A DNA stretch of 8,625 nt from a virus. Taxonomy: Duplodnaviria > Heunggongvirae > Uroviricota > Caudoviricetes. A program made the position numbers and the translations under genes. Shown piece by piece: positions 6,286 through 7,500 of the stretch; the first letter of the stretch is position 1; every line of letters begins with the position of its first letter. The stretch is from IMG/VR virus record IMGVR_UViG_2529293076_000018; one strand, written 5' to 3'. The notes beneath the pieces are model-generated. The model worked only from the letters and a program-made list of their open reading frames with translations, ran no database searches and had not been told where the DNA came from.

Positions 6286-7500
6286 ATGGCAGTAAAGATT
6301 TCAGGTGTACTGAAAGACGGCACAGGAAAACCGGTAGAGAACTGCACCATTCAACTGAAAGCCAGACGTAACAGCGCCACGGTGGTGGTGAACACGGTGG
6401 CCTCTGAAAATCCGGATGAAGCCGGTCGTTACAGCATGGACGTTGAGTACGGTCAGTACAGCGTTATTCTGTTGGTGGAAGGGTTCCCGCCGTCACATGC
6501 CGGGACCATCACCGTGTATGAAGATTCTCAACCGGGGACGCTGAATGATTTTCTCGGTGCCATGTCGGAGGATGACGTCCGGCCGGAGGCACTGCGCCGT
6601 TTTGAACTGATGGTGGAAGAAGCGGCGCGTCACGCTGAGGAGGCGAAGAAGAATGCCGGAGAGGCGGAGACGTCCGCGAGGAATGCCGGCATATCAGCCA
6701 GTCAGGCAGAAGAGAGCGCGGCAAATGCTGACACTTCAGCAGGGGATGCATCGGAGTCAGCCCGGCAGGCGGCAGAAAGTGCAGCCGCTGCAAAGCAGTC
6801 AGAGGAGGCGTCCTCGTCCTCGGCCTCTGCGGCCGCTCAAAAAGCCAGTGAGTCATCACAAAGTGCAGCAGAAGCTGAATTGTCAAGAAAGACGGCAGAA
6901 AGTGCAGCCGGTAATGCAGCCAGGGATGCAACGACCGCAACAGAAAAAGCCCGGGAGTCAGCAGAAAGCGCACAGTCAGCGGAACAAAGCAGGATAGCGG
7001 CGGAAGAGGCCGTAAACCGAATCCCCACGGTGGTGGGGCCTCCCGGGCCAAAAGGGGGAACCGGGTCCCGCGGGTCCTCAGGGGCCGAAGGGAGATAAAG
7101 GAGAGCGTGGAGACACCGGTCCGGCAGGGGCAACCGGTGAAAGGGGGCCGGCAGGAGACACCGGTCCAGCAGGCCCGGCAGGCCCACAGGGACCGAAAGG
7201 AGAAACAGGTGCGGCTGGCCCGGTGGGGGCAACCGGACCTCAGGGACCGAAGGGCGACCCGGGGAGACACAAATCCGTTTTCGTCTGGGGCCGGCGAGCA
7301 TTATTGAGACAAACAGCCATGGCTGGTTCCCGGATACAGATGGCGCACTCATCACCGGACTGACCTTTCTTGACCCCAAAGATGCCACACAGGTTCAGGG
7401 GCTGTTTCGGCATTTGCAGGTCAGGTTTGGTGACGGGCCGTGGCAGGATGTTAAGGGGCTGGATGAAGTGGGCAGTGATACAGGCAGAACAGGAGAATGA
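6286..7500 (+). pseudogene. stf: Short side-tail-fibre protein (lambda Stf-like N-terminus, Ala/Ser/Glu-rich low-complexity segment, collagen-like Gly-X-Y repeats, conserved C-terminal domain); frame broken twice (around 7054-7058 and 7261-7264) and restored
   Basis: MAVKISGVLKDGTGKPVENCTIQLKARRNSATVVVNTVASENPDEAGRYSMDVEYGQYSVIL… closely matches the lambda Stf N-terminus as I recall it. This frame stops at 7096-7098 just after GPPGPKG. The Gly-X-Y repeat continues unbroken in the next frame (…[70 protein letters not shown], about 7058-7263). From 7264 the original frame encodes [78 protein letters not shown] and stops at 7498-7500. The supplied track ORF 6280-7098 begins at a GTG; the ATG at 6286 matches the lambda Stf start. 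Confidence 0.75.
7036..7263 (+). repeat. Collagen-like Gly-X-Y triplet-repeat coding region inside the tail-fibre gene
   Basis: About 75 consecutive codons with Gly at every third position and frequent Pro/Ala/Lys/Glu at X and Y, GC-rich and repetitive at the DNA level (ggNccNgca…). Visible only when the reading frame is moved by one base between 7058 and 7263. Confidence 0.7.

Follow-up and report, generated by a model that had tools for sequence, protein, structure and literature searches.

The lambdoid-type side tail-fibre gene described here is interrupted by two single-base changes in short homopolymers, and on comparison of the sequences these interruptions probably belong to a chimeric draft consensus with miscalled homopolymer lengths. 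This reading includes the sub-case in which true alleles from different paralogues have been brought together in one contig. The window, by which we mean the whole 8,625-bp stretch of DNA that was analysed, is the entire contig AKLY01000014.1 of assembly GCA_000267065.1, from E. coli O157:H7 strain TW09109. All of the features discussed lie on the plus strand of the window.

The TW09109 assembly (AKLY00000000) is a draft of 2012, 5.57 Mb in 66 contigs. The genome announcement covers 26 drafts, which were obtained either from Illumina HiSeq data alone, assembled with Velvet, or from Illumina data combined with 454 FLX/XLR 3-kb paired ends and assembled with Celera. It describes O157:H7 as genetically homogeneous. 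From the low contig count only, we infer that TW09109 is one of the 454 hybrid assemblies. A literature search on strain TW09109 returned the genome announcement only.

The 3′ part of tail gene L ends at 507 and is followed by K (518–1259), I (ending at 1835), J (GTG at 2076 to 5554), lom (5622–6221), the fibre gene (6286–7500) and an 89-codon open reading frame (ORF) that starts at 7502, after which comes an nleG-type effector gene. This order, L-K-I-J-lom-fibre-small ORF-nleG, is also found in prophages annotated in finished genomes of E. coli O157. No frame break is present in L, I or lom, and 3.4 kb of J is likewise intact.

As recorded, the 5′ part of the fibre gene (6286–7098) comprises 270 codons and then TAA. 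The ORF list and the translation both confirm the stop at 7096–7098 that the earlier note had reported. The frame opens with ATG at 6286, with an alternative GTG at 6280; the ATG is also the CDS start in the FDAARGOS_293 and NE 1092-2 homologues. This part encodes a phage_tail_N domain (PF08400, residues 1–133, E = 7e-69), a stretch rich in Ala, Ser and Glu, and the first Gly-X-Y triplets. The collagen-like region as a whole occupies 7036–7269 and holds 26 such triplets, seen in the translations and, as Pfam Collagen (PF01391), in the repaired protein, where they form residues 251–328. The bulk of the region, 7054–7264, is in the +1 frame relative to the fibre start, and in that next frame the Gly-X-Y repeat is free of stops from about 7055 to 7264. 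The premature TAA is a product of the first frame break, and the collagen frame reads through the same place as GAT AAA (Asp-Lys). After 7264 the original frame returns with the conserved C-terminal domain, again as the earlier note had it; translation runs to TGA at 7498–7500 and Pfam assigns the part from 7265 to 7500 to Phage_fiber_C (PF06820).

Removal of one A and addition of one G give a 404-residue ORF. The repaired protein is identical to the intact O157 fibre WP_064234952.1 at 397 of 404 positions, and in it the collagen segment and PF06820 (residues 330–393) share a single frame, whereas in the recorded sequence they are divided between two frames with the stop at 7096–7098 on the way. 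The N-terminal PF08400 domain is present without any repair, and so is the gene order expected of such fibres, J, lom, fibre and then a small Phage_fiber_C ORF. The gene is an ordinary side tail fibre of the lambdoid prophages, built from phage_tail_N, an Ala/Ser-rich stretch, a collagen-like triple-helix segment and Phage_fiber_C. Over the shifted segment there are six substitutions relative to WP_064234952.1 (FDAARGOS_293); the collagen frame makes five of them synonymous, the upstream, formally open frame none. Because the substitutions follow the collagen frame and the gene is intact on repair, the DNA has evolved as a normal gene and, if the indels are real at all, they are very recent. 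A homologue search recovered a large family in clusters at 90% identity, a level at which alleles are not told apart. Exact-product look-ups with the truncated fibre ORF, from both possible starts, and with the J ORF gave no match.

The indels were located by alignment to FDAARGOS_293, Sakai Sp12, NE 1092-2 and more than 100 IMG/VR copies. At base level the fibre gene differs from its intact homologues by exactly one +1 and one −1 change, 211 bp apart. The first is in the A-run at 7050–7053, which is A4 in the window and A3 in the homologues; the window reads CCAAAAGGGGG where CCAAAG... occurs in 34/34 fetched copies with the same flanks. The G5 run immediately downstream (7054–7058), to which the first break had been attributed earlier, has the same length as in homologues and carries no lesion: among 34 fetched copies it is G5 in 26 and GGGAG, of equal length, in eight. 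The second is in the G-run at 7261–7264, G4 as opposed to G5 in homologues, and it restores the original frame. The counterpart of this run is G5 in 111 of 113 fetched copies with the same downstream haplotype, the remaining two being CCGGGGGG and CCCGGGGGG. The earlier proposal of one extra and one missing G some 207 bp apart, with the collagen repeat continuing in the next frame from the G5 run, was therefore right in its next-frame repeat, in its pairing of a +1 with a −1 and in its missing G, and wrong in that the extra base is an A at 7050–7053 and the spacing is 211 bp. The comparison of run lengths with homologues that the same note advised shows an uninterrupted collagen frame with run length alone differing at both sites (A3 to A4, G5 to G4), the outcome that it had associated with artefact or recent mutation.

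The two indels had been called compensating. They do cancel in number, but the second cannot rescue translation because the stop at 7096–7098 falls between them; the compensation is arithmetic only and has no functional meaning. Nor is it unusual that two of the six single-base indels in 8.6 kb should lie in one 1.2-kb gene, for which a binomial estimate gives approximately 0.2.

Two further frame breaks lie upstream. In K, which encodes a C40 peptidase/JAB tail protein, GG has become G at 909–910 (CTGGCGGGG to CTGCGGGG), a position that adjoins the G4 run at 912–915 and is outside it. In J the break is four codons from the GTG at 2076, at 2085–2088, where the window has G4 and most copies have G5. 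The remaining two single-base differences in run length sit in the spacer after the small ORF, so that, relative to the best finished copy, every one of the six single-base differences is a change in the length of a homopolymer. The assertion that all four frame breaks coincide with G4–G5 runs holds for the J start and for the second fibre site; it fails for the first fibre site, an A-run, and for K, with its GG beside a G4. The four breaks are heterogeneous and not one systematic class. Sequencing or assembly error, as the earlier note suspected, is the best supported origin, although not as a single kind of G-run error since two of the four breaks are outside G-runs.

The small ORF downstream is also abnormal. 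In other copies the 89-residue Phage_fiber_C ORF ends in TAG or TAA; in the window this stop is lost (TAC, 7769–7771) and the ORF is fused to nleG, giving a 318-residue ORF at 7502–8458 that the public record treats as one gene. The product of this ORF (7502–8455) is recorded on a single contig, AKLY01000014.1. The 60-nt spacer at 7763–7822 looks as if two natural alleles, 62 and 61 nt long, had been combined column by column, so that the stop of the small ORF is destroyed. Because the spacer looks like a base-by-base hybrid, the fibre-C/NleG fusion is probably spurious. Hybrids as fine-grained as this, a few bases at a time, fit a consensus of mixed reads, and recombination is not their usual source. 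On the 3′ side of the small ORF, at approximately 7786–7812, a hairpin followed by a T-run (CCGGAG, TCCGG, CTCCGG and then TTTTTT) has the look of an intrinsic terminator; a simple terminator scan was negative.

How does the rest of the contig relate to its paralogues? The tail module is present in approximately 10–19 copies per O157 genome, genomes with the collagen segment have it at a median of 12 places and at 19 at most, and many draft contigs elsewhere break inside the module. The comparison set consisted of 5,426 finished E. coli genomes, many of them labelled O157. The best finished-genome match is 98.7% for the whole contig and 95.3% for 7030–7285. Taken in 300-bp chunks the contig matches assorted other copies at 95.3–100%, most at 99% or above, with the best donor switching every few hundred bases, and nearly all of its 21-mers are present in other copies. 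Against the best finished copy, that of NE 1092-2 in which all genes are intact, there are 101 substitutions, mostly in patches at 634–1032, 2209–2495, 2815–3077, 6597–6887 and 7156–7409. Of the four frame breaks, three are within or close to these patches.

Comparison with two co-resident prophages of FDAARGOS_293 shows the contig to have the backbone of one, interspersed with stretches of the other type within K, I, J and the fibre gene. In the patches at 634–1032, 1445–1560, 2209–3077 and 6597–7409 the alleles are those of other co-resident prophage copies, of Sp12 type and L128 type. The backbone is identical to the NE 1092-2/FDAARGOS_293 copy, and the mosaic is shared by no finished genome. 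Over 6888–7155, A4 included, there is no difference from the Sp12-like copy of NE 1169-1 and AR-0429. A greedy exact-match parse divided the window into 38 segments as compared with 12–22 for three finished copies, an excess that is suggestive at most, the controls being favoured by orthologues in the panel. Among the ‘private’ substitutions the counts of synonymous and non-synonymous changes are small and mixed.

These observations can be accommodated if the assembler merged reads of several near-identical prophage tail modules into a single chimeric contig of 8.6 kb, in which short homopolymer lengths would have been miscalled or mixed, A3 being read as A4 and G5 as G4. The mosaic and the indels would then have arisen in assembly and not in the cell. 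We favour such an artefact because the contig is a stand-alone piece of a repeated module, its patchwork of paralogues is private, the spacer looks hybrid and the fusion it creates is probably spurious, all six indels concern run length, and the fibre gene is perfect but for two bases. Pyrosequencing is known to miscall homopolymer lengths, and short-read drafts hold collapsed or chimeric repeat contigs. The window resembles both, with six run-length changes among six single-base differences, and with paralogue patches in a short stand-alone contig of a multi-copy module. It differs in that the use of 454 data for TW09109 is itself inferred from contig counts, those in the paper and the 66 of this assembly.

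One argument against an artefact comes from finished genomes. The A4 allele at 7050–7053 is found exactly in three of 438 matching finished records (1,277 places), those of NE 1169-1, NE1127 and AR-0429. All three are finished O157:H7 genomes, the allele lies in a degraded Sp12-like prophage that is not the prophage of the window, and the fibre is annotated as frameshifted. The A4 is probably real in these three assemblies. The G4 allele at the J start (2085–2088) is likewise exact in four of 719 matching records (2,296 places), namely PV15-279, FORC_044 and two derivatives of 86-24, which add three further strains; here J is annotated without its N-terminus. Because finished records share the J-start G4, and in FORC_044 it lies in the copy that, of all in that genome, matches the whole window best, it may be a true allele or polymorphism, in TW09109 also. 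FORC_044 and 86-24 also share other frameshifts in K and J, a further point against an artefact.

The shared changes in FORC_044 and 86-24 are single-base deletions in K and J, at sites that align to window positions 811 and 3184. The two genomes are separate accessions, with South Korea named as origin in one of the records and no origin in the other, and each carries private single-base deletions in addition. It seems that this prophage copy is either truly decayed in that lineage or represented by early long-read assemblies with shared systematic errors.

Such data bear on the possibility that the breaks in K, at the J start and in the fibre gene are genuine products of slippage in short runs as a cryptic prophage decays, the second fibre indel being a neutral hit in a gene already dead. 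We consider this unlikely, yet with some real chance of being correct. In this prophage family short runs do suffer real single-base decay. Finished O157 genomes have K, J and fibre genes annotated as frameshifted in their corresponding prophages, three finished genomes have the A4 and four have the J-start G4, and J of Sakai Sp12 is split into three pieces. Against this, the K deletion (909/910) was found in none of 2,592 matching finished records (4,730 places). The fibre pair, A4 with G4, occurs in no record; the six that were aligned or annotated, all but NE1127, have one indel each. The G4 allele at 7261–7264 is exact in four of 699 matching finished records (4,198 places), those of 2013C-3277, 2014C-3051, SMN152SH1 and AUSMDU00014361, none of which is labelled O157 and which represent at least three different gene contexts. 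One of these, SMN152SH1, has further homopolymer deletions nearby and looks error-laden.

Genuine decay also has to be reconciled with approximately 100 patch substitutions that no finished genome shares, which are hard to square with a true copy in a serotype as genetically homogeneous as O157:H7, with the intact state of L, I, lom and 3.4 kb of J, and with substitutions that keep to the repaired frames. A mosaic could also arise if co-resident prophages recombined naturally, a point against the artefact. Pseudogenisation would require about five private recombination patches and several private slippages in one strain, none of them seen in finished genomes.

Pattern scans for both fibre indel alleles gave no match in IMG/VR or in JGI metagenome contigs. 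A 3.8-kb contig from a metagenome-assembled genome labelled ‘Clostridiales bacterium’, SFGJ01000067.1, contains J and fibre sequence of this E. coli prophage, with 45 nt matched exactly and part of J 86.5% identical to the window; the label is probably a binning or contamination error.

A variant contained within the chimeric-consensus reading takes the two indels to be true alleles, one from each of two fibre paralogues in TW09109, that the assembler joined. In its favour, the contig is demonstrably a patchwork of paralogues, and 6888–7155, with its A4, matches the Sp12-like copy of NE 1169-1 and AR-0429 throughout. Against it, none of the four finished G4 records is labelled O157, and we give this particular form of the explanation only a small chance. 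A slimmer one still attaches to the idea that the A- and G-runs at the ends of the collagen segment, together with the G5 at the J start, are genuine and recurrent slippage hot spots and that the TW09109 fibre gene has really been hit twice. Were this true, resident prophages of independent STEC lineages would have lost tail genes repeatedly in this way.

Functional switching, by slipped-strand phase variation of fibre expression or by programmed +1 and −1 frameshifting at A-AAA-G and G-GGG-A, has next to no likelihood, for although a +1 slip of Lys-tRNA from AAA to AAG and a −1 slip of Gly-tRNA in GGGG would, as read from the sequence, restore GPKGEP and DPGETQ, both inefficient slips would be needed, the runs are of only 4–5 bases with lengths essentially fixed at A3 and G5 in the copies checked, and the homologues are single-frame with no conserved frameshift. 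A phase-variable locus has a long tract that is polymorphic in length; here the runs are 4–5 bases long and the variants are confined to 3/438 and 4/699 records. The slipped-strand variation that had been entertained earlier does not agree with runs so short and so nearly invariant across thousands of copies. A programmed ribosomal frameshift implies a conserved change of frame, and the homologues are single open frames.

Intact O157 fibres, annotated as ‘prophage tail fiber N-terminal domain-containing protein’, include WP_064234952.1 (FDAARGOS_293), ECs_2231 (Sakai Sp12) and WP_000268860.1 (NE 1092-2). They share with the window gene the position after J and lom and the three-domain layout, and differ in having a single open frame with A3 and G5 in place of A4 and G4, together with a few substitutions. 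Compared with the Sakai and NE 1092-2 fibres, the window has one fewer 9-bp repeat of the GPA type. There are in-frame length differences in the collagen segment (window 7153–7185), with an additional 9 bp in Sakai Sp12 and NE 1092-2 and an additional 108 bp in 2013C-3277 and 86-24; these represent natural variation in repeat number of the triple-helix segment. The frameshifted fibres of finished genomes, three with A4 and four with G4, carry single-base alleles identical to those of the window in the same runs, but in other prophage contexts.

The side tail fibre of phage lambda, Stf, has a homologous N-terminal domain and occupies the same place after J and lom. It is much longer than the window fibre and is not known to have this collagen segment or the Phage_fiber_C end. 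The gene in the window presents nothing new in kind; it belongs to the known family of collagen-bearing O157 fibres, of which frameshifted members are already annotated.

The biological weight of the finding is small and its practical value is one of caution. In older drafts, a short contig that stands alone and holds a multi-copy prophage module can be chimeric and can contain frame breaks and gene fusions, the apparent fibre-C/NleG fusion being an example, which should not be taken for pseudogenes, phase switches or new effectors without the support of reads. If the indels are real, they would represent merely one more decayed tail-fibre gene among the many known in O157 prophages.
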